Assembly: GCA_965655095.1 (NCBI GenBank)
Contig: OZ296653.1
Location: 56,544,001 to 56,608,000 of the forward strand
Length of the DNA: 64,000 bases
DNA from: Haplodiscus bocki
Lineage: Eukaryota
Reading direction: 5' to 3'
In this document: positions 1,403-23,502 of the stretch, piece by piece
Layout of the letters: each line of letters starts with the position of its first letter
Numbering within the stretch: the stretch's first letter is position 1
Notes under the pieces: generated by a model
What the model was told of the DNA's origin: nothing
Seen by the model: only the letters and a program-made list of their open reading frames with translations
Database searches by the model: none
Program-made: the position numbers and the translations under genes

Positions 1403-1524
1403 TTTTTACCTGGAAGATATTTTTACATTGATTATCTTCCTTTGCATTATTATTACGCTGAATGAATGTAGCAGGCGAGTGAATAAAGCAGACGGCCTGA
1501 TGAATTCACTCGCTTTCTCCATTA

Positions 1525-1692
1525 GCCATGATCACCATGACGCCATAACCGAAACACAATCATAAAGTTTTAAATACTCGTCTGTTATTGGCTCGCCATG
1601 TTCATTCGCTGGCTTCGGTCTTTCGCCGATGACGGCAGAAAAATTCTTAGAATTTTGAAGAGCCCAGAGACGGTTCACTATCTCTATTTTAT
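1525..1692. repeat. Dispersed repeat shared with 23503-23665
   Basis: Both copies begin catgatca(c/t)catgacgccataaccgaaa and end ggttcacta(t/g)ctctatttt. Confidence 0.7.
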
Positions 1693-1818
1693 ATAGAATT
1701 TGTTCAGTTGCTAGTGCTCACATCAATATAAGAGAACTTCATGGTCTCAAATTCATCCGCAACACTTCCGCCAACTAGTTATTTCGCTGTATATTTAACC
1801 TGAAATTGGCAATTCTTG

Positions 1819-2041
1819 AGCTCAAATAAAGTTGGTAGAGCAAGTGACTCCTGCGCGAAAAGTCCCAAGTTCGATCCTAGGCCACTCCTTCATCCTCGGC
1901 CAAAACCTAAGAACTTGTATCAGTCCTGAACGGATCGGAAAAAAATTAGGATTGTGTTATAACACTTGCTTGCGCAAGTGTAAGCATGTATCTATTCTTG
2001 ATATAGTGGGATATAGTGGAGGCAGATAAGTGATCGTAATC
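1819..2041 (+). mobile_element. tRNA-derived SINE-like element, interrupted by the LINE
   Basis: A-box-like gctca...agttggtagagc (1820-1841) and B-box gttcgatcc (1869-1877). No intact cloverleaf. Confidence 0.55.
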
Positions 2042-5000
2042 GGGTCCAATCATTCCGTCTTTCCGTGGTGGACCCAACACGAAGGATGCTCCTCCGTGCA
2101 AATGGAAGTTCAGCGGTCAAACGCCGGACAATCATCCCTCCTTCGAGAAGAAGAGGGGCCTCAACTGGGATCGGGTTTTTGACAACGGAGCAAATCACGC
2201 CGGCCGAATTGCTCCGGATTCTTCTCATCAGAGCTGGCATTGAAACAAATCCTGGACATAGATGGAATTGCTGTATCTGTCGCAAACCCTTGAACAAGCA
2301 AGGAAGTGTGCGTTGCTCTAAATGCGGGAGGTATGCCCATTACAAATGCACCCCTTTCAGCAACGCCAGCCACGTATCTTATAACTGGTCCTGCACACAA
2401 TGTACGAACCATCCACCGCCACCACCTCCTCCACATCCAGCCCAACAACAGGCCTGCTTACGACTCCTGCAGTTCGATTGCAATGGCATCAGTGGAAAGA
2501 AGGAAAAAATTGCAGCTTACCTTCAAAAGAACCAGATATCGATCGCCGCCATCCAAGAAACGAAACTGACGAGCAAAAGCAAGGCGCCTGACTTTGAGTC
2601 TCGCTACAACTTCATCAGACAAGATCGCCCCAACAACAAACCTGGTGGAGGTTTGGCTTTCATCATCCATGAAAGCATCGAATTTAGAATAATCCCACAA
2701 TACAGCGACGAGGTCCTCGAGACGCAAGGCATCAAGGCGAAGTTTGGCAATCTGGAACTGAAAATAATCAACTTCTACCTTCCTCCTAAGAGCAGTTGCC
2801 CTCCAGATTACCAAGAAACCCTCAAAAGCCTGCTCTCGCATAATAACGCCCTGCTGCTCGGGGATGCTAACGCTCACGACCCAACCTGGTTCTCGACGAT
2901 TGCAGACACTTGAGGCAGCAAACTCTCAGCAGAGATCGAAGAGTCCGAAATGGGAATCTTGAATGAAAACTGCCCTACCCGCCTGCCCTCGAACCAGCAG
3001 CAGACATCCCCTGATATCTCTTGGTCACGAAATCGTTGCTGACCTCCTGCGATTGGCCGACCGAAATCGGTCTCAGATAAGACCATCTACCAATCCTCAT
3101 ATCCATTTCATCCTCATCATTCCTGGAACAAATCCGCGACTCCAAGCGCACTTTCATCAACATCGCCAAATCTGACTGGCCTGCTTTTCAGGAAGAGATA
3201 CAGTGCACTCAGAAACCAGCCTGGACCAACGGATGTATACCACGGTGAAGCTGTACTGCGGAAAGTCATAAACACAGCATCGAAAGACCACATTCCGTCA
3301 AGCACACGCAAAGACGGGATTCCTCAGCTCTCAGATGAAGCCAAGGAACGGATGACAAAAAGAGACGAGCTAAGAGCCCGTGAACCACACTCGCCAAAAA
3401 ATGAGGAGGTAAATAGCCGATTCAGATGTCGATACGCAAAAGCAAAGAAAAAAAATGGCGCGAGTTCATCAGCTGTTTCGACCACAAAACTGACTCGTCG
3501 AAAGTATGGAGAACCAAAAAGAATCTCGACAACAAAGCAGCAAAAATCAAAAGGAATGACCCAATCAAATTCAAATTATCAAAACGCAGGAAAACTATCA
3601 CTGATCACAAATATATGTCAGAACTATTTAACAAACAGTTCACTTCGCCAAGGCCGCACAGCACCTCGGAACAGCATCGAGTCATCCGAAGCGAGATAAG
3701 CAAAAGAGGCCTAGACAATGGCACTTTTTTCACCGTTCCCGAGGTCGAAGAAGCAATTCGAGCAGCCAAAAGCTCAAAAGCGGCGGGACCCGATGGGATC
3801 ACTATGATTCATCTGAAGCATCTGGGATCCGGAGCCCTCTGCTATCTGACAAAAATTTTCAACATTTCTATATCAACCTGTACCTTACCTTCTATCTGGA
3901 AACAATCGACAATAATTCCTCTTCTCAAACCTGCTAAACCAGTAAACGACAGTAAATCGTATCACCCTATATCACTTCTATGCCCTGCTTCCAAAATTTT
4001 CGAGAAGTGCCTATTACCAACCATCCAGAAACACCTGAAATGCAAACAACATCAGCATGGTTTTAGAAGGAATCACTCGACGATATCGGCTCTGAACGAG
4101 ATATCAGCTGCGATTACCGATGGCTTCAACAAAACGCCTCCAGCCGAAAGGACGCCGCTCATAGCCCTGGATTTGTCGAAAGCCTTTGACCTAGTCTCTC
4201 ACAACACCCTCCTCGCAGATATAAACAGGTCGTCACTACCGGGATATGTAACCCACTGGCTGGCCTGCTACCTGCATGGAGGACAAGCGAAGACTATGTT
4301 TCGCGATTCACTCTCCAAAAGCCGCAACGTCCGATTTGGCGTCCCGCAAGGCTCTGTACTAAGACCCATTTTATTCAACTTCTATGTTAGTGGCGCCCCT
4401 CTACCTCCAGCCCACATCAACTTGGTGTCCTACGCAGACGAAATTACCGTCTACGCGAAGAGCAACAATGTGGACTCATTAGCTACAGAAACATCAGGTT
4501 AACTGGAGCAGCTATGCGAGTTCCTACAGCAACGCCAAATGGCAGTGTCACTAGAAAAGTGCTCAAGCACGCTTTTCACCCCATGGACGAAGCAGTAAAG
4601 GTGCAAGCCTGCTGTAAAAGTCAACAGCACGATCCTGGAGGTCAAGAATAACCCGAAAATTCTCGGCCTGACATTTGACAACAGACTCACCTGGGGACCA
4701 CACTGTTTGCTATCATGCCAGAAAGCAGCAAAAAGGGTAAACACTCTAAAAGCCTTGAGTGGAACCACCTGGGGTCAATAGAAGGAGACACTGCTCAATA
4801 GCTACAAAACTTTCGTGCAACCAGTCTTGGAATATGCATGCCCGGTCTGGACCCCTGCTGCTGCACCAAGTACAATCGAAAAACTGCAAAAAGTGCAAAC
4901 TGCAGCGCTACAAGTCGCAACAGGTTGTACTACCATGGGCCCGATACAGCATCTGCACGACGAATGCAAAATCCTACCGATTCGAAGACACATTCGAATG

Positions 5001-5567
5001 AAGAGTGTACAACAGCAATTCACTCACCATATCCCGAATCACCCTGGAAGCAGACTACGTAAAAGAACACTTGCCAGAACAAAACACTGCCTCAACTCGA
5101 GATACCAACGTTACATAGAAGCACTTCGCGACTCCGATTCAGATGATGAAATATCTTCTCGTGAGCGACACAAATCAATGATGCAGTTCATCCATACCAA
5201 CGAGGTAAAAGACTACATGGATACACGTGAAGACAATAAAGTCCTCAATTCCCCAGCACCAGACATCAGCGCAGATGAAGAGAAGTTACCACGCAAAACT
5301 CGCAGAATTCTGGCGCAACTACGAAGTGGATACTCGCCTCACTTACGAGCAGATCTCAAGCGTACGAGAGTAGAAGATTCAGATCTATGCCCGGATTGCA
5401 AGAAGCAGAAGCATACAACGAACCATCTATTTGACTGTGAAGCAAATCCCACAAATTTGTGCGTGCTATCACTCTGGGAATCCCCAACAGAAGCAGCCAA
5501 TTTCCTCCGTTTACAGGACGATGATTCCACTGAGGCCGCCTCCTGAGCGAAGGCAATCAACAACAAC
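2042..5567 (+). mobile_element. Full-length, decayed single-ORF non-LTR retrotransposon (Ingi/Vingi-like; PHD-APE-RT-Zn finger)
   Basis: 13-bp TSD AGTGATCGTAATC at 2029-2041 and 5568-5580, and an (AAC)n tail. PHD finger (CCIC...CSKC...HYKC...WSCTQC), APE motifs (IQETKL, GGGLA, LGDANAH), RT motifs (GPDGI, LDLSKAFD, GVPQGS, YADE) and a C-terminal LAQLRSG...CPDC...HLFDC. No RNase H is evident. Several stops and frameshifts (2911, ~3000-3420, 4500, ~4596, ~4780). Confidence 0.92.
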
Positions 5568-7860: not shown

Positions 7861-9269
7861 CCTCAGCATAGAGTTGGTTCAAACTTGACTGAAAACAAGT
7901 CGACCCTATGTGGCTTCGATTTGAAAAAGGCTTTCACGATTGAACAGCAAAAGAATGTTGTCACGATGTGATATGTGGGAAGCCCTTGGAGCGGCTGATG
8001 CCGTACATTCACCACATTATGCAGCGTACTGTGGTCGAAGGCGTGATCTCTTCAAGGTTGAAAGTTTTCATGTGGCAATCAATCTTCCAACTACGGGTCC
8101 CTTCTTTTTTCATTAATTAAAAGACATACTCCGGTCTTGCCAATCGCTGAAGGTTGTGCTGTTTGTTGATTACAAAAAATTGACAGCGATTGGTAAAAGA
8201 GACGTCGGAGTTTTAAAAAATCTTGGGACGCCAACAAATTTGTTCTTAATTCTCAAAAAAATACTACTAAATCTATAAAACCAGTGCTTCCACGCGCAGC
8301 TCCTAATTCATTTTAGTTAAAAAAATGAGCATGTCTGCAGTTATCTCGAGTGCTAATTGACGAGATGCTTAAATTCAAATTAAGCCAACAATTTGGCATT
8401 CCAGGCATTAGATAAAGACTGCGACACTACGTTTCAAATATGCAACTTCTGCAACACTACAAAAATACAAAAGTATCATCAAATTCTTTTTGCAGTATGG
8501 ACGTCTTGTGTATGGTTGCTGTAGCTCTGATTCTTTGACAGCCATTCAGAAACATGAAAACGAATCGGAACCTCGGATCACATACTGACTCGTTAGTTGA
8601 GATCAAAGGTAAACACTTCACATCAAAGATATTTCGATATCAAACATGTTTTTGCGGATTCTGTTGATCATTTCAAAGCATTGTTTGAAAAACAAGCCCC
8701 TGGCGGCGCACGAACATAGCAGCGACTGAAATAGAAGACTATGAATTTTATTCAACTAATATTCAACTGCCTGGAAAACCTCTCAAAAAACGTCAACAAC
8801 AAGAAAGAAGAAATTACGTTCGTGATACTCTTGCATGAACTGAGAAACATCAGGAAAAAATTGCGGTAAATTCCGATAACTTCCCCTATCCCAAAAGTTT
8901 CACGACAATTGAAACATCAAAATTTTCCGTGCTACCCTTTTCCTACTCTAAAATTTTTCCACTGCAAGTGACATTCCCGATACCTCACCAAAAATCTCAA
9001 TATTGATATGTAGAAAACATGAAAACCAAATTCACAAATTTAAAATTCAAATTTGACACAAATGGCGGAAAATTAAGTTGCGGTTAATCGATAGTGCTGA
9101 ACTTTACAAGTTTACAATTTTGATGTTTAGGATAATTGATTGGCGGTTAGTCGACAGTGCTGAATTATTATTTTGCGCCATATTCTTTAGAATATGGAAA
9201 CAAAATCTTCCCCTCAAATAGGTGTGTTTTTTCACGATGTTGGCTCGCGTGAAAACTTTTTACCAAAAT

Positions 9270-9925
9270 TGCCAAGAATGCAGAAAATGCAAAGAATGCA
9301 AGAAATGCAAAAGATGCAAAAAATGCAGAGAATGCAAAGAAAGCAAAAAAAAATGCAAAGATTGCACAGAATGCAAAAAATGCAGAGAAAGCAAAGGAAG
9401 CAAAAAATGCAAAGATTGCACAGAATGCAAAAAAAGCAAAGAATTCAAAAGATGCAAAGAATTCAAAAACAGCAGAGAATGCAAAACAATGCACAGATTG
9501 CAAAAAAGCAAAGAATGCCAAACGTGCAAAAAATGCAGAGAATGCCAAGAATCCAAAAAATGCAAAAAAAGCAAAGAATGCCAAGAATTCAAGAGCTGCA
9601 AAAAATGCGAAAGATGCAGAAAATGAAAAGAATGCAAAGAATGCAACCATTGCACACAATGCAAAAAATGCAAAGAATGCAAGAGATACAAAAAAGCAAA
9701 GAACGCAAAGAATGCAAAAAATGCAAAGAATGCAAAGATTGCCTAGAATGCCAATATTGCCGATTTTACCGAGATTGTCAAGATTGCCAGGAATGCGCAA
9801 AATGCTAAGAAGGTAAAGAATGCAAGAAATGTAGAGAATGCAAAGATTTCCACGATTGCCAGAAATGTAGAGAATGCAAAGATTTCCACGATTGCCAAGA
9901 TTGCCGAGCCTGCAAACATTGCCGA
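9270..9925. repeat. Degenerate 9-bp tandem array (AAGAATGCA)n inside the HINE
   Basis: About 70 imperfect units, which produce open frames on both strands. Confidence 0.95.
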
Positions 9926-10067
9926 GACTGAAATAGTAAGTTTTCCCAGAACGTTCAAAATTTGGGTCTTTTTGAAAAAACAGATGGGTTTTCGGAAAAA
10001 ATTTGATTTTTTTTTCAAATACGCTAAAGGTGGCAAAATCGTTGTAGAATGCGTAACAAATAGTATT

Positions 10068-10597
10068 TGTAAAAATTATTGGGGTGTTCTTTTGTTTGAA
10101 TATGGGTTTCAGTCCTTTACTAGTTGCAAGACTTTGATGTACTTTTTAGTGGCTATCTTCAGTGCGTGGTGTGAGGAGGAAAACACTGTTGAAGCATTGA
10201 AGAATTAATTTCAAGTATACAGGCAACTATTTAGTAGCATTTCCTGAAGAGCTCTCTTCTCCAATCTATTCTTTACAGCTTCATAAATTTTCCAATCTCT
10301 TTTTTTTGTTATCGTGCGGCAATTAGAATTCAATACATGTTTTTTCTTCAATATGTCTTCTTTCCATTTAATTTCCATGCGGTTATTAGATGTTTATTTT
10401 TTGCCCACTGGTTTATTAGTTGTTTTTTTTCCGGATATTATTATTTCCGGTTAGGGAAGGGCTTGTTGTCAAGAAAAGATACGTCAGAGAATTTAATAGC
10501 GCCAAGATGTAATGATTCAAAAATGGATCAGATTGAGATCATGCTTTCCCACATTGTAGGATTTAATTAATTTCAAAATATTCGTCAGAATATTACA
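10068..10597 (-). repeat. 3' LTR
   Basis: Direct repeat of 22382-22915, with about 20 differences by eye (roughly 96% identity). Confidence 0.95.
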
Positions 10598-10680
10598 CTA
10601 GCCGACTTTAAGTTTATTTCTCCGGCTCTATTTTTATTTGTTGTAATTATTACCCATGCTTTCTTGCAGGTTAGTTCTTC

Positions 10681-12866
10681 TTAAACTCGGTGCATTTGTC
10701 GATTGAGTTGTGCATATGTAGGTGCACTTTCTTCTCTTGTTTCCATCAGTTGAGATTCGGGTAGTAATAAACTTTGGTTACGCCATTGAAAATTTTCATC
10801 ATTCTGTACCCGATCCAAATGTTGGTCTTCTACCACCATTATCGGTTTTAGGGGAATTTTTTGTTTATCCAGTTTGTGAGAAAAGGGTTGGAATTTGTGG
10901 AGTTTTTTGTAGCGATGTAGAGCAAGCATTAGTCTCAAATGTAGTAGTGCACTAACGATGAATACTACAATTCCAATCATCAAATGACTTTTCCACGATA
11001 TATAGTTATTAAATTGTTTCTCAAATGAGGGCTTCAACATAGTTAGGTTCTGCGCTTTAGGTTCAGCTATTTGTTGAATATTCTTTTTGTAGCCGTATTG
11101 TGGTTGGGCTTGGAGTTCGAGTTTGAGGGACTTTAGTAGTTTCATATTAGCTTCCACTTTCGTATTGTAGTAGGGAAGTTCATCCACTGTTGGTAGCAGG
11201 CTGAACATGTTTGCCATTGGTTGAGGCAGTTCCACTTCCAGTTTGACAGGTGGGACTTTTGCACATGACGATAGGTCAGACCGGATTCTGATATTTTCGC
11301 CAGTTAACTGTTTACCACATTCTAGTGTTATTAAGCAAATTCTACATCCTTTCACTGGTTTTGAGCCTGCCAGTGTTGTAGCATCCATATAATTTTCTTT
11401 GAATTCGAAGTTGGCCTGTGCTGAAGTTATAAGCCATATTCCATATCCCAGGTTTGTTGCTTTGACTTTCAGTGGTAGTGGGACTGGGACTGTATCACAG
11501 ACTTCTAATGCATCCATAATGCTTCCAAAATATAAAGTTGCGAGCCATGACGAGTCTTCATTTTCTGTTGCCCAAGTTTCACGGCAAATTCGATACTTGC
11601 TTGAACCAATACATTTGTCAAGTTGATCTCTCGTTACAAGCGAAGTTTCCATCAAGTTTTCTGATACTGCCAAATATTCTGCCTCCACATCCCGTTTAAT
11701 TGCCATGTCTTCGTCCATTTGGGGTAGAGGTACCACTATTGCTTTGTACACTGTGAATGCTGTTTGTCGTGATGCAAATGGGATTGCCATTGTCATCCAA
11801 AGACCCTCATCAAAAGTCAATACATCCAATAGTAAACGTGATTCATAATATGCCAGAAGTTCTTGTTTTGGAATGGCCAATGTAAGTCGGTGATCAGACT
11901 TCTCCTGTGAGTCGTCAACCACTTTTAAAATTTGTTCCAAAGACTCTTTGGGTAGTAGGGACATGGGAACATAATTTGAAAGCAGAGAGGGGGTAGCGTT
12001 CATGATATTCATCTGGAATGCGAATAGAGCGGCGCGATACGCTTTGACATTGCTGTAGATTAGCGAAAGTAGGGAAATTTTGTATCAAAATTGAAGTTCA
12101 CCTGTTGTCGTGTGTGTAAGAGTTGATCGCAATTGCGCATGTCGTGAATATTGTCGCGGAGTACTTGGAATTGTCTCTCGATCTTTTGCCAGTTCTCATT
12201 TTGGGTTTCTATAATTTGGTTTTGGATTTCGTGAAAGAGGGAAAAATCTTTCGACACACGGAAAAATTTTTCATCGGTTGCATTTGCAAGTTGTTGTAAG
12301 TTATCTCCAATGGCTATTGCATATTTTCCTAACTTTTCAATGTTTTTGGCATTCGTTTTGGCCTTTTCTTGGCACGAGCCAAAAATGCCTATAATGCCAC
12401 AGTCATCTGATGCAACGAACATGATGCGTGTTCCGAATAATCCAACGGCACCAGCAACTGCGGCTGCTATGGGTAGCGCTCTTCTAGATCTTTGGCTTTT
12501 TTTGATTTCGGTACCCTTCAGGTAGGAGTATACCCCTTGTTTTATTTTGGTCAGGTCTTCATCGGCGAACGATATTTCCTTTTTTGTTTCTTTTAGAAGC
12601 CAGTCTACTTTGAATTCGTTTTCACTTGTGTTAGTGAAATTAAGATAACAACGGTAGGTCGGCATTTGCCACATGTTTTGTAATTCTCTTGCTACTTTGT
12701 CTAGGCTTTTCGTTAGTTGAATGTCAAAGGTTGGGTAGGGGACTAAGAACTGGGCGTTTACAAATTTTTCTGCCAAAAGTATTTTTGTCTCTTCAAGAAA
12801 AAATACTCCTCGTTCAAGACCTTTATCATCTGCTGCTGCTACTCTTAATAGTAAAAGTAGAATCAT
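10681..12866 (-). pseudogene. env: env: class I fusion glycoprotein (F-protein/errantivirus-like), one frameshift near 12060-12090
   Basis: Signal peptide MILLLLLRVAAA, furin site RSRR followed by hydrophobic fusion peptide ALPIAAAVAGAVGLFG, heptad-repeat region, Cys-rich region (CIGSSKYRIC, CRICLITLEC) and C-terminal TM (LMIGIVVFIVSALL) with a cytoplasmic tail. Confidence 0.9.
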
Positions 12867-12990
12867 TATGGGAGGCTGGTTTTCTTTGTTGAATTAATTA
12901 ATACGTTGATTATTGGAATACTGTTAGAATGCACATGGTTTGAGTTATACTTGCAGTTTATAGTTCATCTTCTAGATAGTCCAGCAGTTC

Positions 12991-13275
12991 TTATTTCTTT
13001 TTGAATCCCGTTTCTGGATTCAATGATTTGTAGTGTTTGCTCAGTGTATCGTAGAGGCTAACAAATTCGCTTGTGTCACTGTCGACTTCCATATAGTAGG
13101 GCTCATTGTGGGGTTTCAGGACTCTCATTCGAATGAAAGGACAACATCCACATTGTTGTAGTTGAATAATATTGATATAAATTTGGTCTTTTTCGGGTGG
13201 TGTCCATTGTAGGAGTACTTTGAATTGTAGTTGAATTGGGGTAAGTTGCCAATGAACTGTAATTGTATTCTCCAT
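12991..13275 (-). CDS. Accessory ORF A2 (94 aa), unknown function, paralog of 13691-13975
   Basis: ATG-initiated and uninterrupted. Shares LQWxPPxKD, CxCC, SxFVSLY and a C-terminal NP with the neighbouring ORF. Confidence 0.75.
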   Translation of the reverse strand: MENTITVHWQLTPIQLQFKVLLQWTPPEKDQIYINIIQLQQCGCCPFIRMRVLKPHNEPYYMEVDSDTSEFVSLYDTLSKHYKSLNPETGFKKK

Positions 13276-13690
13276 ATTGATTCGCTGATAGAGCTTCGAG
13301 GTATTTCTTTAATTCGATTTAGAAGGGGTTTAACTTAATTTCAAACTTCTCCAGCCACTCCTAAATTTTTTTGCCATGTGAAAAAGTTAGAATACTTCGA
13401 GATTGATTCTGGTTTCTCGAGTTAGGGGAGTGAGTAGCTAACGGTTGGAGAGTAGATTCTAGAATGAATGTTGCAGTAGTGGCGCGATTTCAATGAATAT
13501 AAATACACAATCGGTGTTTCGGCGGATATTAAAGTTGATATGGGCGGGACTGCGACGGATATCAAATTGTGTTGGTGCGGATGTTTAAATGAGTTCGATG
13601 ATAATGACAGGTTTTCAGGCCTGTCATGTTCTCAGTGCGAGTCAATTGATTACTAGCACTCTGTGTTTGTCAATGTTCCAGTACAACTAA

Positions 13691-13975
13691 TCAAGCTGTT
13701 TCATTAATTTGATTTCCCATGAATCGAACTAACTCATCCAGCTCTGTTGGATTAGTGAAGACATATAAACGGAGCATTTTGTACAAGCTAACGAATTTCG
13801 TGCTTGTCGTTGAATTTTCTAAGATCGCTTGTTGTCCGTTATTCATTTTAGGATTGCTAATGAGAAGTCTCAAAGGTGCACAACAGGAGCATTTTTGCCA
13901 TTGAATTCTGTGTATTGTAAGCAGAATATCTTTGCCAGGTGGCTTCCACTGTAAATTAAGATCAAATTTCTCCAT
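13691..13975 (-). CDS. Accessory ORF A1 (94 aa), unknown function, paralog of 12991-13275
   Basis: LQWKPPGKD...QKCSCCAP...TKFVSLYKML...TNP aligns by eye with ORF A2. Confidence 0.75.
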   Translation of the reverse strand: MEKFDLNLQWKPPGKDILLTIHRIQWQKCSCCAPLRLLISNPKMNNGQQAILENSTTSTKFVSLYKMLRLYVFTNPTELDELVRFMGNQINETA

Positions 13976-14129
13976 TTCTGCTGTTCTTTTTTGTAATAAT
14001 TTTAGTTGAATAATGTCATTTAACCGGATATGAGTTTATTTTGGTTTGTTTGGTCAGTTTATGAGCCCGCTGTCATCTATTTTTGGGTGACGTGTCGTGG
14101 GGGCAGTCTTTTTTCCGCTTTGTTTTTAG

Positions 14130-14420
14130 ATGATTTTCAGGTGTTCTCCTTTTCAGAACATGGAATGTGTTCAGGTAATGTTAAATCAACTTGTCTCGTT
14201 ACTTTGTTGCCCGGACGGTACAACAGTTGTCCGGAATGGGGTAAAAAAGAGCTTTCCCCCAGGAAGAGATCCTGAATGCCCATCTGTGGTGGTTGTGCCG
14301 TCTGAGGCACCTCAGGAATCTCCCAGTGAGTATGGTAACTGGCTTACACTCGCTGTGCCCATTGTGGCGTTTCTACTCCTGGTCGTATATTGGCATCTCA
14401 AAAAAAGATCTGCAGCGTGA
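14130..14420 (+). CDS. Antisense small single-pass membrane ORF within the LTR element
   Basis: C-terminal hydrophobic stretch WLTLAVPIVAFLLLVVYW followed by basic HLKKR. An in-frame ATG at 14160 follows a tttcag acceptor-like site. Confidence 0.45.
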   Translation: MIFRCSPFQNMECVQVMLNQLVSLLCCPDGTTVVRNGVKKSFPPGRDPECPSVVVVPSEAPQESPSEYGNWLTLAVPIVAFLLLVVYWHLKKRSAA

Positions 14421-14742
14421 AAAGAGTCTCTGCCGTTCAAATGCTGTAGCTTGACTGAAGTGATTTTTAGAATGTTCTTGAGTTTAGCACTGTTCTACTC
14501 TTTCTCGCTCTTTGTTTTATTTTATTGTTACTACCTTGAACAAAGTTGTGTTATTGTTGCTGCCGCCTTGTTATTGATTGTATAGTTTTGTTTTAGATTT
14601 ATTTTGATTGTAATAATACTGAGATTTTAATTTAAGTTAGAGTACCTCATTGCCGTTCCATTTGAGTTTAGGTTGAGTGGTAGGTATGTTGTTAAAATCT
14701 GAACCGCTTGCATAATGTCAATGCCATTTTTCAGAGTGTAAA

Positions 14743-15302
14743 ATGGAAAAGTATAAATTGCTGCTCAGTTTATGCCAAGAGAATTTCAGTGCTTTGGAGC
14801 CAATGTCTGTGGAGCAGGCTGCCAAATTTCACTGTCCTTATTTGGTGAAGGGGTCAGCTGCTCTTACAAGTCAGTTAAGCATCAAGATTTAGCGGTAAAT
14901 TGTACCAATATCCGTCAGTTACTAAGGTATTTTAAAAATTGGGGCGAGAAGCATAATTTATGTTTATTTACTGGAACAAGAGTGTTAACTGCGTTGATGC
15001 CACATATTCGAGAATTACATAGAACTGACTAATGGTTTAACAGTGCCATAGTACCCATCAGTTCAGTTCATAATCCTGTGCTCCTGGTAGCCACTAGTAA
15101 CTGTGTGACTGGGTGGCACAGGCATCATGATCCGCCGACAGAAGTTGTGGCCTCTTTTTTACGGGGTCAGAAAATCTGGGTTTTTGCTTCAAAAGGGTCA
15201 AAGGAGGCAGCTCATTTATCAAACGTTAACGAAGCCAATAATTTCGAAAATTTTATTGAGGGGGTTATTTATAAACGGAAACATCGGAGAGTTGCCAAAT
15301 AG
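14743..15302 (+). pseudogene. Antisense JmjC/cupin-like (2OG-Fe oxygenase) remnant within the LTR element
   Basis: VLLVATSNCVTGWHRHHDPPTEVVASFLRGQKIWVFA resembles the JmjC core (T-x-x-H-x-D/H...G-x-K-x-W). 14772-15302 is one frame with a single stop (15030), and the upstream frame has PYLVKG. The distal His motif is not found. Confidence 0.4.
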
Positions 15303-15919
15303 TTGGGGAAGTTTAATGTTTTCTCTAAAGTTTGATTGGTTGAGTTTACGTTTTTTGCCATTTAGTTATTTAATTTCTGCGTAATGCGGGATCCCTTATA
15401 TCCTATTAAAAACGGCTTTGAATTAGGCGTTCGTGAAAGTCTCATGCGTTGGACTCACTTGTGAATTTCTCTAAGCCGAAGTCCGCGTTTGTCATTTCAT
15501 TTTTTTTGGCTGAAGATTTCTTTTTGTTCAAACATCTCAAAAGATATAGTTTCTCCTTGCGCTATGGTCTAGACCTAGTATCCTATTACAACCAGTGTGG
15601 AGCATGCTTCATGCGAAGGTATATAGGACTGCTTAATGACTTTTGTAGATCTCAGCCGAAGTGCGCGTTTAAGGAAAACTAGTATGGTTTAATGGGGTTT
15701 TGAGACTTAACTCAAAACTGGTTCAATCTTCGCTAGTATAGGTAGCTAAAAACCTGTCCTTGATCATTGCATGCAGAGAATTTTCATTCTGCATGTTTTT
15801 CGGGGTGTTTCTTGTTCGTTGACTCAAACAATGTTTGCGCTTCCACTGTTTTTTGGCGGCTACTATTGAGGTTCATTTTGGTTATCTTTTTTGTAAATCA
15901 TCTGGGGTTCTATATCAGC

Positions 15920-16402
15920 TTAGCTATTAACTTTTATTAGGTTGTGCTTTCGGAGGCATACTGTTATCCCTACTTTTATCTTTTGGAATACTTCATGTAG
16001 AATTTTATTCACTATTGACAGTTGAAATTTGTCTAGGTCGCATCCAAGTTCAGGTAGTCGAATGTTTGTCACTCCATGAGTCTCTGCATGGTTGCGCATC
16101 AAGACGAGACTGTTTTTCAGCGCATCATAAAAAAGTTTGTGGAAATATTTGGGTTTCGTTATCAAGTTGTATATCCATCTTCTTGAATATTGGTCGTAGA
16201 ATGCAAAGACTGATCCTGGTGCCAGCCCTCTGGAAGCTTCGGTTTTCATTTTTGGGTAGAGTTGGTCGAATCGCTTGGCGATACCTGCTCCCATGAAAAA
16301 GTCAGAAGAAACACAGTGTCCCATGCTAGAGGAAGTTCCAAAAAGATCGTCTTCTACTATTGACACTCTGGAGGTTCTCTGAGCTACTTGGATTGCGTTC
16401 AT
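15920..16402 (-). CDS. TARG1/OARD1 (Poa1p-like) macrodomain ADP-ribosyl hydrolase carried by the LTR element
   Basis: Colinear motifs DLF, GHCVSSDFFMGAGIA, WIYNLITK, YDALKNSL, GVTNIRLPELGCDLD, HEVF and ITV match the OARD1 pattern (GDLF, AHCISEDxxMGAGIA, YIYYLITK, MPRIGCGLD). Confidence 0.92.
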   Translation of the reverse strand: MNAIQVAQRTSRVSIVEDDLFGTSSSMGHCVSSDFFMGAGIAKRFDQLYPKMKTEASRGLAPGSVFAFYDQYSRRWIYNLITKPKYFHKLFYDALKNSLVLMRNHAETHGVTNIRLPELGCDLDKFQLSIVNKILHEVFQKIKVGITVCLRKHNLIKVNS

Positions 16403-19400
16403 GTCTGTTGTACTTCGTTTTTTGGACGTTTCTTCTTGTGTTGCTCCTAGTCTTTAAAACAAATTGCTTTTGCTGGCGTTGCCGGCGGCGATTATTAAGA
16501 GGATCAACGAAGTTTCTGGCTTCGACAGATTGTCCTTGGTTTGTGCGTTTAGCACTACGGGTTTTTTGAAGTTGTTGTCCAGCCACTTCCAGAAGACGTT
16601 CGCTTAGCCTATTGGTTTGTTGTTCTTGTATCCTTGTTGAGCGTCTCGGTGCTGTAGTGAATTGCACATATTCGTCAGATTCCTCAGAAGATTCAGGTAA
16701 TTGTGCCGTGAGATACGGAGGTGGTGTTAGTATTCTTCTAGGTTGTTCAAGTCTTTGTGCTTGGGGAATTGTTAACGGTTCCTCCATCTCAGGTGCTACC
16801 TCTGGTTGATCAACTGTTTCCTCTGCTGCTGGTGGTTGTTGAGGTTGTACCCCAAACGAGATTGAGACTCGAACGGGGCTGTCGAAGTTCGGAGTTTTCT
16901 TGTCAGGAACGGTTGGGTCACTTTCCAGAAGAGAAGGAAGACCGTTGTCAAAGAAGTCTTGTTCGCCTCGAAAATATCCCAGTGTTGGATCTGTCTGAAA
17001 GTTTTCATAAAGGATATCGTTGATGTCTGTTACCTGGTATTGGGGCTTGATCGGGCGTAGTCTAAATCGGTGAACAATTTGAGTATAATTTGTTCCAACT
17101 TTTCTGATGAAACAGTTCGAGTCGGTCAACACCTCCACTCTATAGAGAGCCAGCCAATTTTGGATTAGTTTAGGGCAGAAAGCAGATTGTTCTGTTAGTC
17201 GAGGGTTCAGCAATAGGCAGTATGTTTGTTCCTTAAGTGGGTTTGCCCTTGCTTTTTGGTCGCAGTACCTTCTGTACCTGTTGAAAGATTTTGCGAGACT
17301 CTTTTGTAGTTTGGAACTTCTTCAACAATTCATCACGTAGTGATTCTACAAAGTCGTAGTTGAAGGCTGATTTTTAGATACAGTTGCTGTAAAAACGAAT
17401 ATCCAAAGGTTTCACTGGGGCTCTTCCGTGGAAGATAACCGTTGGTGCGCATCCGATTGACGTATGATAGGATGTGTTATGGATGAACGTTGCTAAGTTA
17501 AGGAATTTATGCCAGTTGGTGAAGGTTTGGTTGCTATTTAGTTTCAGAAATCGCGTTAGGGCTGCCTGTGCCCTTTCGACTACTCCAATTGTTTGTGGGT
17601 GTTTCAATGATGCGTGAGATACTTTTATTTCTAGTAGTTGGGTGAGTTCGTGAAAAAGGTCTGACACAAACTGCGTTCTTAAATCTGAGAGGATTTCTTG
17701 TGGTAGGTAACTGTGTTGGAACATAATGGAGACTAGGGAGGTTGCCACTGAGAGTGCACTGATTGTGGTCAGTGGTACTGCAAAAAGGTATTTTGTGAAA
17801 ACATCAATAGCTGTCAGCACATACTTGTATGGTGACGATGGAAATGGTCCCAGAATGTCTATCTGCATAAGGTCGCCTGGGTAAGATTTCAATGTCGAAA
17901 CCTCTTGCAGTGGTGTTTTTAGTCTCGAGGGTTGTACCTGTTTCACTTGCAGGCATGTGGAACAGTTTCTGATATAGTCTGCAATTAATTCCACATAGTT
18001 TGGGCAATAGAAGCGTTTTCTGAATTCCTCGATGGTCCGCGTGAATCCCAAATGTCCTCCAGTTGGAGCGTTGTGTAGTCTGTACATAACTTCTTTGAAA
18101 AATGTTTTTGGTACACACAATTGTTTGTACAGCATTTTTCCATCGTGTGCGTAGTATCTTCTGTAAAGTGTTCCATCTTCTGTAAATAATCGTCGAAACT
18201 GTTTGAGGTACTTTTGTTCTTCTCCGGTAGAGTAGATGTTCGCTGTAGGTGCAGAATCAGTTTCCAACCATTTGATCACTTTTGTAATCACCGAGTAAGA
18301 ATTTTGTTCCTGTTTTAAGTTAGCTTTTGTTGTTTCCAATTCGGGATAGTCGTCCATTGGGTTTTTGTGCTGAGTTGCATTAATTTCTGTTGTTTTCTTC
18401 TTGTATTTCGTGATTCGTAGGTGACAGTTGGAAGTCAAATTCTTTAACTGTTTTACGGCCTGGTCATAGTTTCCAGATTGTTTGAGTGTGATCAATGTGT
18501 TTATATATACTACTTGAAGTAGGTCTACAGGTAAGTCATCGGCAAAAAGCTCATTGATGGTATTGTCTGGTAGCTGTGCTCGTACGTCTATTTCAATTTC
18601 TCTAATCGGGAATCTGTCTGTCAGTTTCAATTCAAGTGTTTCGTTTGGATTTGATTGCAAGTGAGATAGAAAGTCTGCGGCTGCATTCGCTTTTCCTGGA
18701 ATGTGTGTTACCACTATGTTGAATGTTGTAACTCTGTCAACATAATTCCACAGTGAGGGGGGAATGGTTTTTGCTTGGAAGAATCTAGTCAAACTTTTGT
18801 TGTCAGTCAGTATGAGTACCGGTTTTTCGCTTCCCCAAATAAAGTGAGAAAATTTTTCTAGGGCAAAATAGAGAGAAAGGAACTCCTTGCAATATATTGA
18901 CATTTTCAATTGTGCTGTATTGAAGACTTTTGATCCCAATGATACAGGTGCATAAGATTTTACATTTTCTCCTTTGTTGTTTGTGACATAGTCTTCTATC
19001 ATTAATACAAATCCGCTCCAGCGATATTTAGCGTCACATAGTATAGCATAATGGAGTCCTGGTTCGGCAAGTCTAAGAGTTTGCGTGGATGTGGTTTCAA
19101 GTTTTTCTGAGTATCTGGAAAGCATTTCTGATCTCATCTGTTATTTCAAACAAGACATTCTTACGCAGAAGTTTGTAGAAAAGAATAAGATAATCGTTCA
19201 GATTCGGTATGAAGCTGCGGAAGAATTGTAGAAAGCCTATTAGTCGTTTGACTTGTTTCACCCATTTTGGTATTTCCAGTGTTTTTAGGAATTTTTGGAT
19301 TTTTTTTACTTTCAAGTTGTAGGCTTTCTTTTGTAATTGCATTTCCGAGAACTTTTTCTGATCCGAAGACACATTTCTCTGGCGATAGTTTGAGTCCTGA

Positions 19401-21194
19401 TCTGCGTAAACATTTGAAGATAAGTCTTAAATTAGGTATGAGTTGTTCAACTGATTCCACTCCACATCTAATATCATTCATGAACTGTGTGCAAACGTTC
19501 ACTGAGAGACATGGCTCCAAGTAGTTTCTCACAAAAGCACTGAAGCCTGTAACTGATCTGTTGAGACCTCTAGCTAATCTCTGGTAAGCCATAGTTCTGG
19601 AGGCAAAATTGAACGCAAGTAGTTGTACCGAAAGAGGGTCAGCCATTTGAACACAATGGTAGGCTTGAGAGCAATCTAATTTACAAAAGATTGATTTTCC
19701 CGCAAAGTGTGTTGTTGTATCTGCCATCGTTGAAATCGGGTAGTTATTGTTATGATAATCATGTAAGAGAAGATGATTGATTCGGCGTAAGTCCACTAGA
19801 ATTCGAAGTTCTGCGTTTGGTTTTCAGTGTGCAAAAATTGGGCTGCTGTATTTCGAATGGTTGAGGCTCGTGATGATGGCGAAATATTGTAGAAGGGTGA
19901 GCTCTACTTGTAGTTCTTCACGCAAGTGGATTGGTGTTGGGGGACTTTGAGCGTAGACCGGTTGGTCGTGCTCTGGTGTTAGTTTCATGGAGATTTCGGA
20001 ATTATATCCAACGTCAAATCTGTGTTTTGCAAAAATATCCGAAAATTCGACCAATAAGTCTTCAACTTGTTGTTTCTCGTCCGCTTTGAGTATAGATTCG
20101 TTCCTTTTGAATCTTTGTAAAAACTGGTTACGGTATTCATCATTAATGCGTGGGTCAATACTGTCTAGTTCTTTTAATTTCTGTAGCTCATTGTAAATGC
20201 TTTTTTCAACACCTTTCAGTGCTGTTGGGTTTTTGCAAGTTTCCGGTGTTGGGAACCAAAACTTCTTAAAGTCGGGTTTTGGTCGAGGTGGTTGAGAATC
20301 TCCATTAAATTCTTCATCGATTATCAGCTGATTAATTTCAGGCTCAAACTCGTCTGTATTTTTGAATTTTGCCAGCGTTAGTAGTTGGGGGTCTATCGGG
20401 GTTAATGTTTCTGCTTGTTGTGGTGAAAGAAATTTAAACTATGCGACATCCGAGTTGCGGGGAATTGTGATGTCATTAGTTTGGAGATTTAGGGCAGATA
20501 AGTACAAATTTCCTTGGGAGTCAGTTCGCGACAAGGAAGAAGTGATGCACAATCCAGTCTTTTCTTCAAAACTTACTTTTCGTTCGACTATACCACATAC
20601 ATGAGCAAGTCGTTTGTTTTTCGTTTGGAGATTGCATTTCACTGTTGTTTGTTGGTTGGGGGCAATGACGCATTTTTCCATTGTTCTAATAGTCTATTGG
20701 GGTTTTCCGGTTTTATCTGTTTGCGTTGATATTTCGTTCAACTGAAGCGTCAACTCTGGTAATTTCATCAGGTTTTCTCGTGGGTAGAGTTCAATGGAGT
20801 TATTTTTGAAAAATGGATTTCCCAAAATGATGCTATTTGTGGTTGGGAGTACTAAAAATTGTTCTTTGAAATGGTTTTTTGCTATTGCAAAATCGAATTC
20901 GATTTGGCCACGCACAGGTATAAGTTGTCCTGAAGCTAGTTTCACTTTATTGACTTCAGAAGGTTGTGAGATGATTGCTGTTGTTCCGAAAGAGGATTTT
21001 AAGTCATCATAGTCCCTTTCACTGATTGCATTTGCACAGGCACCATTGTCAATTAATGCTCTCCTTTGTTGGTTGTTAGGGAACTTCAATGGAACATAAG
21101 ATAGGACATCACCTTCAAGAAAGATGCATGCAGTTATTTCATTTTGCTCATTCTTCGTCTTCCGTGGCCGTTCTTCATACTGGCGTGGCGTCAC
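16326..21194 (-). pseudogene. pol: pol (protease-RT-RNase H-integrase with a long low-complexity C-terminal tail), multiple stops and frameshifts
   Basis: PR: ALIDNGACANAI. RT: YSSPIF, DLRRIN, LDCSQAYH, FMND (decayed xxDD). RH: LCDA, KEFL, TDNKSL, NAAADFLS. IN: HNAPTGGH...CSTC, IDILGP, AIDVFTKY, HPQTIGVVER. Confidence 0.95.
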
Positions 21195-22339
21195 TCGTTT
21201 TTTGGTGCGGTTTGATATGGTATTTGTTGACTTCTATTCGCTGGTCTCCTTTGATTGCAATCTCGTGCGTAGTGATTGGGGTAGCGACAAATATAACATA
21301 CCTGTTTAGAATATGTTGTTTCTGCGATATGTTCTTCGTTCATCGATTCTTGAATTTGTGGTGTGTTATAGTTGGAGTAGTAGCTGTAGTTATTTTTGGT
21401 CTGATTTCCAGTGAAGTAGCTTCTGTTGTTATTGAAGCGTCCTCTTCCTCTATCATTGGCATATCCTCGTCCTCTAAATTTTCCTGAGTTGATGAATCTG
21501 TTATTCCCTCTATAGTACTGTGTTTGGTTGGACCTCTGATAATTCGGATTCGTTGGCGGGCTGACGTTTAATGTACTGATTCGGTTTGAAAGTTCATATT
21601 GTTGTTTCAGCTCGTCTTGTTGTTGTGTAATTTTTGTTACTGCTCCGACCAAGTTTTCTGAGAGTGAAGAACTCACCTCATTAAATGCGTCCCTTGATCA
21701 ATCTTCACTTGGGCATAGCTCAAAAAATACCATTTGTCGTCTAGCCACTGCACATAGGTCTTGCACTGTCGCTGCTTCATTTTGGTCAAGCAGTTTCCTT
21801 CTGATGAAGTTGGGCATTGCATTTGTGAAGATTTCTTTTATCCTTCTGTTTCTTTCGTTCACAGCGTTGTTAAGTATCACTTGGTTTGCTGCTTGAGCTG
21901 CTGCAACCCTGTCTATTTCACGTTGGTCGCCAGGTGGATTTGCAGGTGGAATTGGGGCAAATACCGGATCCGGGTACGCTTGGGTGGCTTTGATTTGTAC
22001 TTGAACCAAAAAGTCTTCTGGGTTACCAGTTTTGTGGTCGAACTTCAAGTTTTGGAGTTGCAATTTGTGGAGTTCCCTCAGGTTAGGGTTGCAGTAATGA
22101 TTTCTAAGAGCTGTAATCGATAGTTCGAAGTTGTCTCTAGTTGCTTGGGGTAAAGTTCTGAAGAATTGTAGCGCTGGGTCAAGTAGGTGTAGTTGTAGGA
22201 AATGTGGTTGGTTTGCTGCTGCAATATTGCCAACATTGATTAAGCTTCTGAGAAGACTCTCGAAGTCTGGCCAGTTTTCATCTGCCTTTCCGCGAAATGG
22301 GTTCAAAGTAAAATGTGGTTGTGGGTTTGTCGCTGCCAT
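21191..22339 (-). pseudogene. gag: gag with CCHC zinc knuckle; one in-frame TGA at 21698-21700
   Basis: PFRGKADENWPDFE capsid-like N-terminus and CYICRYPNHYARDC (Cx2Cx4Hx4C). ORFs 21698-22339 and 21191-21676 are in the same frame. Confidence 0.92.
21197..21203 (-). promoter_or_regulatory. -1 ribosomal frameshift heptamer A AAA AAC at the gag-pol junction
   Basis: The heptamer is in the gag frame just before the gag stop, and pol is open in the -1 frame. Confidence 0.75.
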
Positions 22340-22360
22340 TATTCTTGAATAGTTGTTTGC

Positions 22361-22381
22361 CTCACGTCCTCCTTGTCACCA
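22361..22381 (-). promoter_or_regulatory. Primer binding site (tRNA-Trp-like)
   Basis: TGGTGACAAGGAGGACGTGAG directly after the 5' LTR. Confidence 0.75.
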
Positions 22382-22915
22382 TTTAAAAATTTTTGGGGTG
22401 TTCTTTTGTTTGAATATGGGTTTCAGTCCTTTACTAGTTGCAAGACTTTGATGTACTTTTTAGTGGCTATCTTCAGTGCGTGGTGTGAGGAGGAAAACAC
22501 TGTTGAAGCATTGAAGAATTAATTTCAAGTATACAGGCAACTATTTAGTAGCATTTCCTGAAGAGCTCTCTCCTCCAATCTATTCTTTACAGCTTCATAA
22601 TTTTTCCAATCTCTTTTTTTTTGTTATCATGCGGAAATTAGAATTCAATACATGTTTTTTATTCAATATGTCTTCTTTGCATTTAATTTCCATGCGGTTA
22701 TTAAGATGTTTATTTTTTGCCCACTGGTTTATTAGTTGTTTATTTTTCCGGATATTATTATTTCCGGTTAGGGGAGGGTTTTGTTGTCAAGAAAAGATAC
22801 GTCAAAGAATTTAATAGCGCCAAGATTTAATGATTCAAAAATGGATTAGATTGAAATCATGCTTTCCCACATTGTAGGGTTTAATTAATTTCAAAATATT
22901 CGTCAGAATATTACA
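22382..22915 (-). repeat. 5' LTR
   Basis: Direct repeat of 10068-10597, adjacent to the PBS. Confidence 0.95.
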
Positions 22916-23502
22916 GTATTTTTTCATAAAAATAGCTTTCCGCCCCAGTTTTCAAGTTTTTTGGCAAAAACAAACAGATAACTATGAAACTTGGAAAAAA
23001 AATCAGAAAATACGATGACGTAAAGGTGCTTTTTCGAGAAAAAATTGTTTTCTTGTTTTTAGAAGACTTTTTTTTACAAAAATGAGAAGGCGCAAAATTT
23101 GCCGGAGGTAGCCGGCCGTCTCGTTTCTCATCTCTTGAAAAAATTCAAGATGTTTTCGAATTCCATTCGCTATAGCTGATATCAAATATAATTTTGTCGG
23201 AACATCATTCTTTGAGAAAAATATTCAAAATATTAACATTCAAGATTATACCACGACTTCCAAACATTCCTTCAATGATCAACCCATAATTGCTTCTTTC
23301 ACTACGCTGATTGAAGCAACGTCGGCACTGCGTACAATAGGAGATATTTACAATTAACTAACTTCACAATGACACGTATATGTACTAGCAAACTTGCCAG
23401 ATCGGCAAATTAAACATTCAAATTGTCCAAGACACTTTAAAGAGCCGTTCAACTTTTTTTTCGGCTTCAGAAGCACTATTATTACACTAAAGGAAAAAAG
23501 CA

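Follow-up and report, generated by a model that had tools for sequence, protein, structure and literature searches.

Complex retroviruses (lenti-, delta- and spumaviruses) possess several small accessory genes around env, as well as antisense genes such as HBZ of HTLV. Among the Ty3/Gypsy elements, the env-carrying members of non-insect animals have been named "ancient errantiviruses" (Chary and Hayashi, PMC13524379); the main text of that study does not mention macro, demethylase, ADP, antisense or accessory, and its seven supplements do not mention JmjC or cupin. An orchid Ty3/Gypsy element is described, in the abstract of PMC9289625, as carrying an AlkB m6A demethylase with a proposed role in counter-surveillance. 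Macro domain proteins have been reported from epsilon-like endogenous retroviruses (ERVs) of fish (Basta et al. 2009, as cited in PMC4977317), and the matches to Drosophila sORF2 given in the available part of PMC11952523 are all in sense orientation (105/105). Our literature search found no JmjC-bearing or macrodomain-bearing env-Gypsy, while looser precedents exist. A preliminary description of the window, the whole stretch of 64,000 nucleotides analyzed here, had regarded accessory ORFs as unusual outside the vertebrate retroviruses. The orchid AlkB, the diverse ORF3s of bdelloid elements, the MDG1 sORFs and the fish ERV macro proteins make them less exceptional than that.

Structure and decay of the element

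The window contains a dead, LTR-bounded copy of an env-bearing Ty3/Gypsy element, and the paired LTRs, target-site duplication (TSD), gag, pol and env were all found where the preliminary description had placed them. Gag, pol and env are encoded on the minus strand, with two antisense units on the plus strand between pol and env. The framework of the element consists of the following features:

10063..10067, no strand, left 5-bp TSD GTATT
10068..10597, minus strand, 3′ LTR, 97% identical to the 5′ LTR
10681..12866, minus strand, env, putative F-type-like class I fusion protein, with a frameshift near 12080 in the window copy
16326..17321, minus strand, C-terminal region of the integrase, followed by a long Pro/Ser-rich linker that leads to the macrodomain
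17302..21098, minus strand, pol with protease, dUTPase-like stretch, reverse transcriptase (RT), RNase H and integrase, interrupted by several stops and frameshifts
21698..22339, minus strand, open N-terminal part of gag (DUF1759, E 3.3e-5)
22368..22381, minus strand, candidate primer-binding-type site, starting with TGG and adjoining the 5′ LTR
22382..22915, minus strand, 5′ LTR, paired with the 3′ LTR
22916..22920, no strand, right 5-bp TSD GTATT

The LTR pair comprises 531 aligned columns with 515 matches and 16 mismatches (K2P 0.031). The LTRs end in TG...CA, one inner end being mutated, and a short TSD is present, as in Metaviridae; a clear polypurine tract was not found in the element. 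In this copy, each of pol, env, JmjC and the longer of the small ORFs is damaged by stops, frameshifts or deletions. Its own lineage, which consists of three copies with LTRs 95.7–97% identical, looks extinct. Three contig runs, one of which bears the label of a second organism (share 0.20), cover 30/30 bins; this coverage carries no information on expression, nor does it establish the presence of another species.

The domain order of pol, PR-RT-RH-IN, is that of Metaviridae (Ty3/Gypsy), with matches to aspartyl protease (E 0.003), RT (1e-12) and, weakly, dUTPase (0.018). Compared with PDB, the RT of the sister copy L047 matched Ty3 RT with an E-value of 4e-25, foamy-type RT with 2e-19 and gammaretroviral RT with 4e-8. 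Judged by similarity rather than by a tree, the RT is nearer to Ty3 than to Retroviridae, Copia or BEL, and that of L047 is not of the retroviral type found in Retroviridae, including the complex retroviruses. Env, read from 10681–12866, shows a furin site (RSRR), a hydrophobic fusion-peptide-like stretch and a C-terminal transmembrane (TM) segment. Relatives of the element carry long open env frames. The dN/dS of env is 0.26 (codon bootstrap), and one of the seven env homologs scanned matched Baculo_F (E 3.6e-7).

A macrodomain at the C-terminus of Pol

Downstream of the integrase lies the macrodomain:

15920..16402, minus strand, TARG1/OARD1-type macrodomain (PDB 2l8r, E 3e-22), separated from pol by a frameshift in the window copy

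The preliminary description had listed this domain as an ORF of its own within the cassette. The domain itself is present, but members of the family encode it as the C-terminal domain of Pol and not as a gene of its own; in the window copy, the frameshift has split it from Pol. Integrase core motifs were found in 16 of the 51 macro-bearing open frames, three of these belonging to the window's own lineage. We rejected the idea that the family's macrodomain is a stand-alone gene, although in 23 of the 51 frames a Met is located shortly upstream. The Lys/Asp dyad of TARG1-type macrodomains (PMC9411070) is retained to a large extent, with the catalytic Lys present in 71/77 loci and the Asp in 68/77, and the domain shows a dN/dS of 0.20 (codon bootstrap).

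The accessory region is shared by the family

Between the macrodomain and env, the window copy contains:

12991..13275, minus strand, small sense ORF s2 (94 aa here, about 106 elsewhere) with a C-x-C-C-P motif
13691..13975, minus strand, small sense ORF s1 (94 aa), paralog of s2
14151..14156, plus strand, TTTCAG resembling a splice acceptor, directly upstream of the antisense TM ORF (25/29 copies)
14160..14420, plus strand, antisense small membrane protein (86 aa), with counterparts in all three lineages
14729..14734, plus strand, a second acceptor-like TTTCAG, upstream of the JmjC start (14/17 copies)
14743..15302, plus strand, antisense JmjC 2OG/Fe(II) oxygenase gene, broken here and 273 aa where open in the family

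The order in the family is RT, integrase and macrodomain, followed by JmjC and the TM protein in antisense and by s1, s2 and env in sense orientation, a layout that three divergent lineages have in common. Among 39 loci selected via cassette DNA, macrodomain or env, 34 contain JmjC in antisense orientation, and at least two of the five copies without it are truncated; selection by macrodomain or env protein alone gives 30 of 34. These are copy counts and not independent events. When 20 loci were instead picked by JmjC out of 143 matches, pol or env was found alongside in 19, and the twentieth has the other cassette genes. Because the same order recurs in 34 of the 39 copies, the cassette is a part of the element and no insertion. 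The preliminary description had considered that it might be confined to a single copy or have separate boundaries. Neither is the case: it is family-wide, no terminal inverted repeat bounding it was found, and its order is kept across divergent copies.

The two small ORFs had been described as paralogs, in agreement with their 33% identity and an E-value of 2e-9 between their counterparts in L023. Neither has a significant match in Pfam or PDB, and their homology to the small ORFs of the sister lineages is only marginal.

We determined dN/dS with a codon bootstrap for eight pairs, of which the env pair L014/L016 is saturated and gives no ratio. As estimated from these comparisons, JmjC, macrodomain, s1 and s2 evolved under purifying selection (0.14–0.45). 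The values are 0.14 (CI 0.06–0.26) for s1, 0.27 (0.15–0.47) for s2 and, in two pairs, 0.26 (0.18–0.38) and 0.45 (0.28–0.76) for JmjC. Read on the opposite strand, the same triplets give a pN/pS of about 1. Neutral evolution, another possibility raised before, does not fit these ORFs; the exception is the small TM ORF (0.56, CI 0.28–1.26, an interval spanning 1), for which 0.37 was obtained across 18 distant copies. The broken ORFs of the window copy would suit the view that the 3.5 kb inserted secondarily or consist of host DNA that was captured and drifts neutrally. This view is refuted by the order and orientation shared among divergent copies and by dN/dS values well below 1, and no close host source was found for JmjC, as comparison with four JmjC loci of the host gave E 0.49 at best; we consider this view extremely improbable.

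Some lineages can dispense with the JmjC gene, and a different antisense gene occupies the slot. For that of the third lineage, a reading as an OTU protease, based on a motif, was dropped as it found no support in Pfam. In one sister lineage, a 2.2-kb antisense module is unalignable while its flanks are 92–97% identical, therefore indicating module swapping, and an exchange of the antisense module was observed in 4/4 DNA comparisons. Two sister-lineage copies with an open JmjC frame have LTRs that are 99.4% and 100% identical; the kit therefore rode on recently mobile elements. A search of viral contigs revealed no relative.

The larger antisense gene has a JmjC fold

Both antisense ORF-like segments of the preliminary description are real, the larger being a broken JmjC gene and the smaller encoding a Cys-rich TM protein. 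According to the structure model (pLDDT 84.9), the larger adopts the JmjC double-stranded beta-helix fold, and the earlier guess of "possibly demethylation" is thus borne out at fold level. A previous model from a shallow alignment (pLDDT 38) was left out of the structure searches. In the window copy, the gene has suffered a frameshift near 14850, one stop, the substitution of one metal ligand and a deletion of ∼255 bp near 15277. The HxD...H metal triad and the 2OG-binding Thr/Lys are kept family-wide, though not in this broken copy: among 55 loci, the His is conserved in 43, the Asp in 47, the distal His in 42, the Lys in 47 and the Thr in 45. Pfam JmjC matched 16 of 17 aligned members. Residues 1–250 of the 273-aa ORF make up the JmjC fold and are followed by a basic tail, which in L023 contains 16 K/R in the last 40 residues; no PHD, CXXC or zinc-finger reader was found in this ORF. 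The hhalign result for the two JmjC lineages is weak (probability 7%); the grounds for their kinship are aligned motifs, the Atlas and bridging proteins.

A PDB search with a single JmjC sequence gave nothing significant, and the same was true for single A1 and A2 sequences. A JmjC profile retrieved ceKDM7A as the best match (E 1.5e-7), followed by PHF8 (2e-6) and, at an E-value of 0.001, JMJD6. VIA with the structure model likewise ranked demethylases first (PHF2 with Z 14.2, rmsd 4.4 and 218 aligned residues, KDM2A 14.1, KDM7A 14.0), with the hydroxylases JMJD5 (Z 13.7) and FIH (13.5) tied with them, whereas Foldseek placed TYW5 and JMJD5 on top. The accessory set could be real and selected while its JmjC protein is a hydroxylase or an RNA- or arginine-modifying enzyme (JMJD5/FIH/TYW5/JMJD6-like) acting on a host or element protein or RNA. 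The Foldseek ranking, VIA scores within one Z unit of the demethylases, the JMJD6 match and the missing histone reader agree with such an enzyme, as does the orchid Gypsy 2OG enzyme, which acts on RNA m6A according to the abstract of PMC9289625. We nevertheless regard it as rather unlikely: sequence profile and VIA both put KDM7/PHF8/PHF2/KDM2 first, the Thr and G-x-K positions align with their KDM7/PHF8 counterparts, and the C-terminal tails are basic.

The antisense membrane protein and probable splicing of the antisense genes

The smaller antisense gene encodes a protein with a Cys-rich N-terminal part (C...CC-x-DGT...C), a C-terminal TM segment and a basic tail, without significant match in Pfam or PDB. 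The acceptor-like sites preceding the TM and JmjC starts are far more frequent than upstream of control ATGs, where TTYYAG occurred in 553/14516 cases (3.8%). Upstream of the start, an acceptor was found in none of the 14 open JmjC frames of a sister lineage; in one sister lineage, the antisense gene has GT-AG intron-like gaps in 8/9 loci tested. The conserved acceptors and the sister-lineage introns therefore point to spliced transcripts from the antisense genes.

The small TM protein adjoins env in all three lineages, as might be expected if the accessory genes had a role in the life cycle (cell entry, release of particles, or the timing of expression in the somatic cells next to the germline) or in self-limitation, with antisense transcription being mainly regulatory and defence not the driving force. 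The MDG1 sORFs (PMC11952523) and the internal promoters of Tor (PMC4402516) are, in the available parts of these papers, such life-cycle features. Both recognizable enzymes, however, are members of eraser families and have kept their active sites intact, and module turnover between near-identical backbones would be more expected under conflict. We therefore judge a pure life-cycle role improbable.

Proposed function of the accessory region

Based on these sequence comparisons, we modestly favor the reading that the conserved and selected accessory block is a counter-defence kit of an env-bearing Ty3/Gypsy lineage, which may erase histone methylation and ADP-ribosylation. The antisense genes would quite probably be transcribed from their own opposite-strand promoter and spliced, and their orientation would allow acceptors, introns and poly(A) signals to be kept without cutting the genomic RNA. 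The JmjC protein would be a nuclear enzyme with a basic tail and is, with similarly good prospects, predicted to be active. That its substrate is histone methyl-lysine, as for KDM7/KDM2, rather than a hydroxylation target is nearly an even call; the predicted enzyme would remove repressive methyl marks from the histones of the integrated copy. The macrodomain would travel with the integrase and is fairly likely to de-ADP-ribosylate protein or cDNA at integration. The small TM protein might work alongside Env at the cell surface, and regulatory adaptors might be encoded by s1/s2, but both assignments are doubtful. Fast swapping of the antisense module would fit an arms race with the host.

An env-bearing Gypsy, a type described as gag-pol-env, can thus evolve a multi-gene, two-strand accessory region under long-term selection, containing recognizable eraser-type enzymes for two chromatin or defence marks. 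If JmjC is a histone demethylase, it would represent an animal retroelement-encoded anti-silencing enzyme, and how transposons fight H3K9/K27 silencing in animals would become testable, the swapped alleles providing a natural series in which to look for the target in the host.

Comparison with known systems

The "ancient errantiviruses" (PMC13524379) share LTR-gag-pol-env, a putatively F-type-like env, multiple copies and an extra C-terminal domain of pol, in some of them a chromodomain; here, this pol tail is a TARG1 macrodomain, and the interval from pol to env is filled by another 3.5–4.6 kb of genes. The macrodomain matches TARG1/OARD1/C6orf130 (and DarG-like proteins) over the whole domain, with the equivalents of Lys84/Asp125 kept, but is fused behind the integrase via a long linker. 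The fish epsilon-like ERVs with macro proteins are, as cited in PMC4977317, Retroviridae, whereas the present element belongs to Metaviridae.

With the demethylases KDM7A/PHF8/PHF2/KDM2A, the element's JmjC shares the fold (Z about 14), the HxD...H triad and the Thr/Lys positions; it differs by only 11–19% identity, a size of ∼273 aa and the lack of PHD/CXXC, and hydroxylases are structurally tied. The orchid element is likewise a Gypsy that fixed an extra 2OG/Fe(II) oxygenase, but this is AlkB and not JmjC, the element is plant Ogre/Tat-like, and the abstract (PMC9289625) reports no env or multi-gene cassette.

The TM protein resembles Drosophila MDG1 sORF2 and reovirus FAST proteins, as presented in the available part of PMC11952523, in its size (<110 aa), single TM helix, basic juxtamembrane tail and LTR-element accessory nature, traits judged by inspection, the basic tail being evident in no lineage other than that of the window. 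Unlike these, it is antisense, lacks an N-terminal MG myristoylation motif, has a Cys-rich ectodomain and coexists with env. Bdelloid LTR elements (PMC5408684), in the accessible text, which contains no macro or JmjC terms, likewise place a dUTPase between protease and RT; they have additional modular ORFs that recur across lineages and, in one clade, a paramyxo-F-like env, but usually no more than one such ORF3 each (GDSL, DEDDy, TM or env).

As in complex retroviruses, several small accessory genes around env are combined with antisense genes, but the RT is Ty3-like, and no accessory gene is homologous to a retroviral one. We tentatively suggest that these elements could be "complex" Metaviridae that arose independently of the complex retroviruses: infectious Gypsy elements with an integrase-fused ADP-ribose eraser and an exchangeable, spliced antisense slot for a histone demethylase or another effector, swapped between near-identical backbones in an arms race against silencing by host chromatin, whose compact JmjC may also be cargo of other animals' mobile elements.

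Structure and state of the element

The preliminary description had recognized gag, the pol domains and env in the Ty3/Gypsy copy at 10068..22915 (minus strand), and sequence and domain scans confirmed all of them at the same positions. Its coding regions comprise gag, protease, RT, RNase H, integrase and env, with the following further features.

10068-10597 and 22382-22915, minus strand: LTRs, 16 mismatches in 531 columns (K2P 0.031)
both flanks of the element: 5-bp target-site duplication, GTATT
internal: primer-binding-type site beginning with TGG
20442-20693, minus strand: weak dUTPase-like stretch (E 0.018) between protease and RT
15920-16402: macrodomain
13691-13975 and 12991-13275, sense: small ORFs s1 and s2
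14160, antisense: most likely true start of the transmembrane (TM) ORF

No clear polypurine tract was seen in the window element. A dUTPase has been reported in the same protease-RT interval of bdelloid LTR elements (PMC5408684). For the RT of a sister copy, Ty3 is the nearest match in the PDB. The window copy is dead, since stops, frameshifts or deletions interrupt pol, env, the JmjC gene and s2; relative to close copies it lacks ∼255 bp near 15277 and ∼150 bp near 13985.

Elsewhere in the window, a tandem repeat with a 9-bp period (9168-9900), immediately left of the element, yields spurious low-complexity ORFs. A broken non-LTR retrotransposon lies at 2017-5546 (plus strand), with frames labeled by inspection as PHD-like, endonuclease-like and RT-like, and the open frame at 39162-40193 (minus strand) resembles an exon of a FERM-domain (band 4.1-like) host gene.

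The accessory cassette is a selected family trait

Queries of the 1.5-Gb host genome returned at least 150 matches for the macrodomain and at least 144 for env. We fetched 39 loci of the window's own lineage (lineage A), selected via cassette DNA, macrodomain or env, and across them the order RT-integrase-macrodomain, antisense JmjC, antisense TM ORF, sense s1/s2 and env is repeated. JmjC is present in 34 of the 39 (30 of 34 among loci selected on macrodomain or env protein alone), and at least two of those without it are truncated copies. Conversely, pol or env adjoins JmjC in 19 of 20 loci drawn from 143 JmjC matches; the remaining one carries the other cassette genes only. The cassette thus belongs to the element and is not confined to the window copy. 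In pairwise comparisons, JmjC identity follows that of RT (Spearman 0.63), more loosely than env identity does (0.79).

The preliminary description had named neutral evolution of the ORFs across the family as one opposing case. Using single pairs of copies and codon bootstraps, we obtained dN/dS ratios of 0.26 (0.18-0.38) and 0.45 (0.28-0.76) for two JmjC pairs, 0.14 for s1, 0.27 for s2, 0.20 for the macrodomain and 0.26 for env, where one pair was saturated; the TM ORF (0.56, 0.28-1.26) did not differ significantly from neutrality. Family-wide medians, from non-independent pairs with a common reference, are consistent with these values. The opposite-strand control gave a ratio of ∼1, and close copies shift towards 1, as expected after insertion. 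This env-bearing Ty3/Gypsy lineage has a real, selected, multi-gene accessory region on two strands; a neutral insertion is scarcely credible.

The paralogs s1 and s2 share a C-x-C-C-P motif and matched no known family. Each of the three lineages has a version of the TM ORF (HMM E values of 8e-5 to 2e-3, small sets), which comprises a Cys-rich part, a TM helix and a basic tail. In a second-lineage locus (L049:4722-6069, minus strand), three tandem paralogous sense ORFs of ∼100 aa, rich in Trp/His and without annotation in the domain scan, are under purifying selection.

The macrodomain is the end of pol

The macrodomain ORF of the preliminary description is present, but it is the C-terminal end of pol rather than a separate accessory gene: a single 1547-codon frame spans RT, RNase H, integrase and macrodomain, and the integrase core lies within 16 of 51 macrodomain frames, three of them in lineage A. 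It belongs to the TARG1/C6orf130 class (E 3e-22). Residues aligned to the TARG1 Lys84/Asp125 dyad (PMC9411070) are kept in 71/77 and 68/77 loci, respectively.

One copy contains a tandem array of ∼100 units of ∼1.5 kb (L011 and L012, C1:120.04-120.19 Mb), each with an integrase C-terminus and macrodomain of the window family, the majority broken. Similar arrays of the JmjC part (C8:27.57-27.60 Mb) and the env part (C2:133.72-133.77 Mb) also occur.

The JmjC protein and its relatives

The JmjC frame is open in the fetched copy L023 (273 aa), and 16 of 17 members match Pfam JmjC. Metal and 2OG positions are conserved in 42-47 of 55 loci. A deeper profile ranked ceKDM7A, PHF8 and KDM7A highest. 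By VIA, the predicted model (pLDDT 84.9) scored 14.2 against PHF2, 14.1 against KDM2A, 14.0 against KDM7A, 13.7 against JMJD5 and 13.5 against FIH, so that demethylases and JMJD5/FIH are effectively tied, and Foldseek placed TYW5 and JMJD5 on top. A hydroxylase-type enzyme, to which the structural rankings lend some weight and the profile matches less, is unlikely though worth considering.

None of four fetched host JmjC loci proved a close source (best E 0.49). A word-indexed search gave 16 close homologs, and a profile search 80 matches, 20 of them divergent compact JmjC proteins. In the tree, with its deep nodes unresolved, no branch unites the lineage A and B types without also including outside proteins. 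Another assembly holds 13 multi-copy, intronless, partly broken relatives on 13 contigs. One (L094:307-1149, plus strand) is convergent to a BEL/Pao integrase (1438-3324, minus strand); the other 12 contigs showed no match to BEL, and a nested insertion is therefore not distinguishable from cargo. From the outside relatives, the intronless set and the BEL/Pao neighbor, the compact family may be a wider mobile cargo.

Module exchange and signs of antisense expression

Twenty-six sister-lineage loci were collected via a second JmjC or env families ∼40% identical to the window env. The macrodomain is found in 24, and small sense ORFs and the antisense TM gene adjoin env in most. Nineteen (lineage B) carry a second JmjC type (∼370 aa, HxE...H; Atlas 0.96 to JmjC clusters), whereas in six (lineage C) an intron-bearing gene replaces it. 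In lineage B, a 2.2-2.4-kb antisense block was unalignable by blastn in 4/4 comparisons between elements that are 91.5-96.9% identical on either side of it, and JmjC identity is 37-45% where env reaches 92-98%. Because synonymous sites are saturated in this JmjC, the sequences indicate exchange of old alleles, not fast point evolution. LTR identity is 99.4% and 100% in two B copies and 95.7-97% in lineage A copies.

A TTYYAG acceptor-like site directly precedes the JmjC start in 14/17 copies and the TM ORF start in 25/29, against 553 of 14516 control ATGs, and such sites occur across lineages with mutually unalignable DNA. It precedes s1 in 1/27, s2 in 0/11, env in 0/12 and the lineage B JmjC in 0/14 copies. 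In 8 of 9 loci tested, the lineage C gene is interrupted by gaps of varying length with antisense-strand GT(A/T)AGT donors (7/8) and pyrimidine-AG ends, as scored by eye. Since a retroelement can retain introns only if they run antisense to its genomic RNA, this slot was probably transcribed and spliced antisense.

The lineage C gene (L047:5571-6614, minus strand; L048, L050, L067, L068; 151 host-genome matches) consists of three blocks with GT-AG intron-like gaps between them. Its sequence shows a zinc-finger-like HxxC/CxxC pattern and no Pfam match; its GGGKCW...YLLTG motif is reminiscent of OTU proteases.

Possible function and comparison with known elements

We lean, by a modest margin, towards the cassette and the pol macrodomain forming a counter-defence kit. 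The data establish architecture, selection, fold, active-site residues and exchange; transcription, activity, substrates and benefit are inferred. The JmjC protein would be produced from spliced antisense RNA and enter the nucleus by means of its basic tail, where it would target repressive histone methylation; the macrodomain would arrive with integrase and free the integration complex or cDNA of ADP-ribose. That the accessory genes instead serve the element's life cycle seems improbable.

No JmjC or macrodomain in an env-bearing Gypsy element was found described in the largely open-access literature covered, which included parts of PMC13524379 (with seven supplements, by term), PMC6338049, PMC4402516, PMC8120803 and PMC12730594. 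Looser precedents are AlkB in an orchid Gypsy (PMC9289625), macro domain proteins in fish ERVs (Basta 2009, as cited in PMC4977317), varied ORF3s in bdelloid LTR elements (PMC5408684), sORFs in MDG1 (PMC11952523) and TET/JBP in fungal DNA transposons. Beside these, the present elements may, tentatively, represent a lineage of complex Metaviridae in which an anti-silencing demethylase occupies an exchangeable slot.
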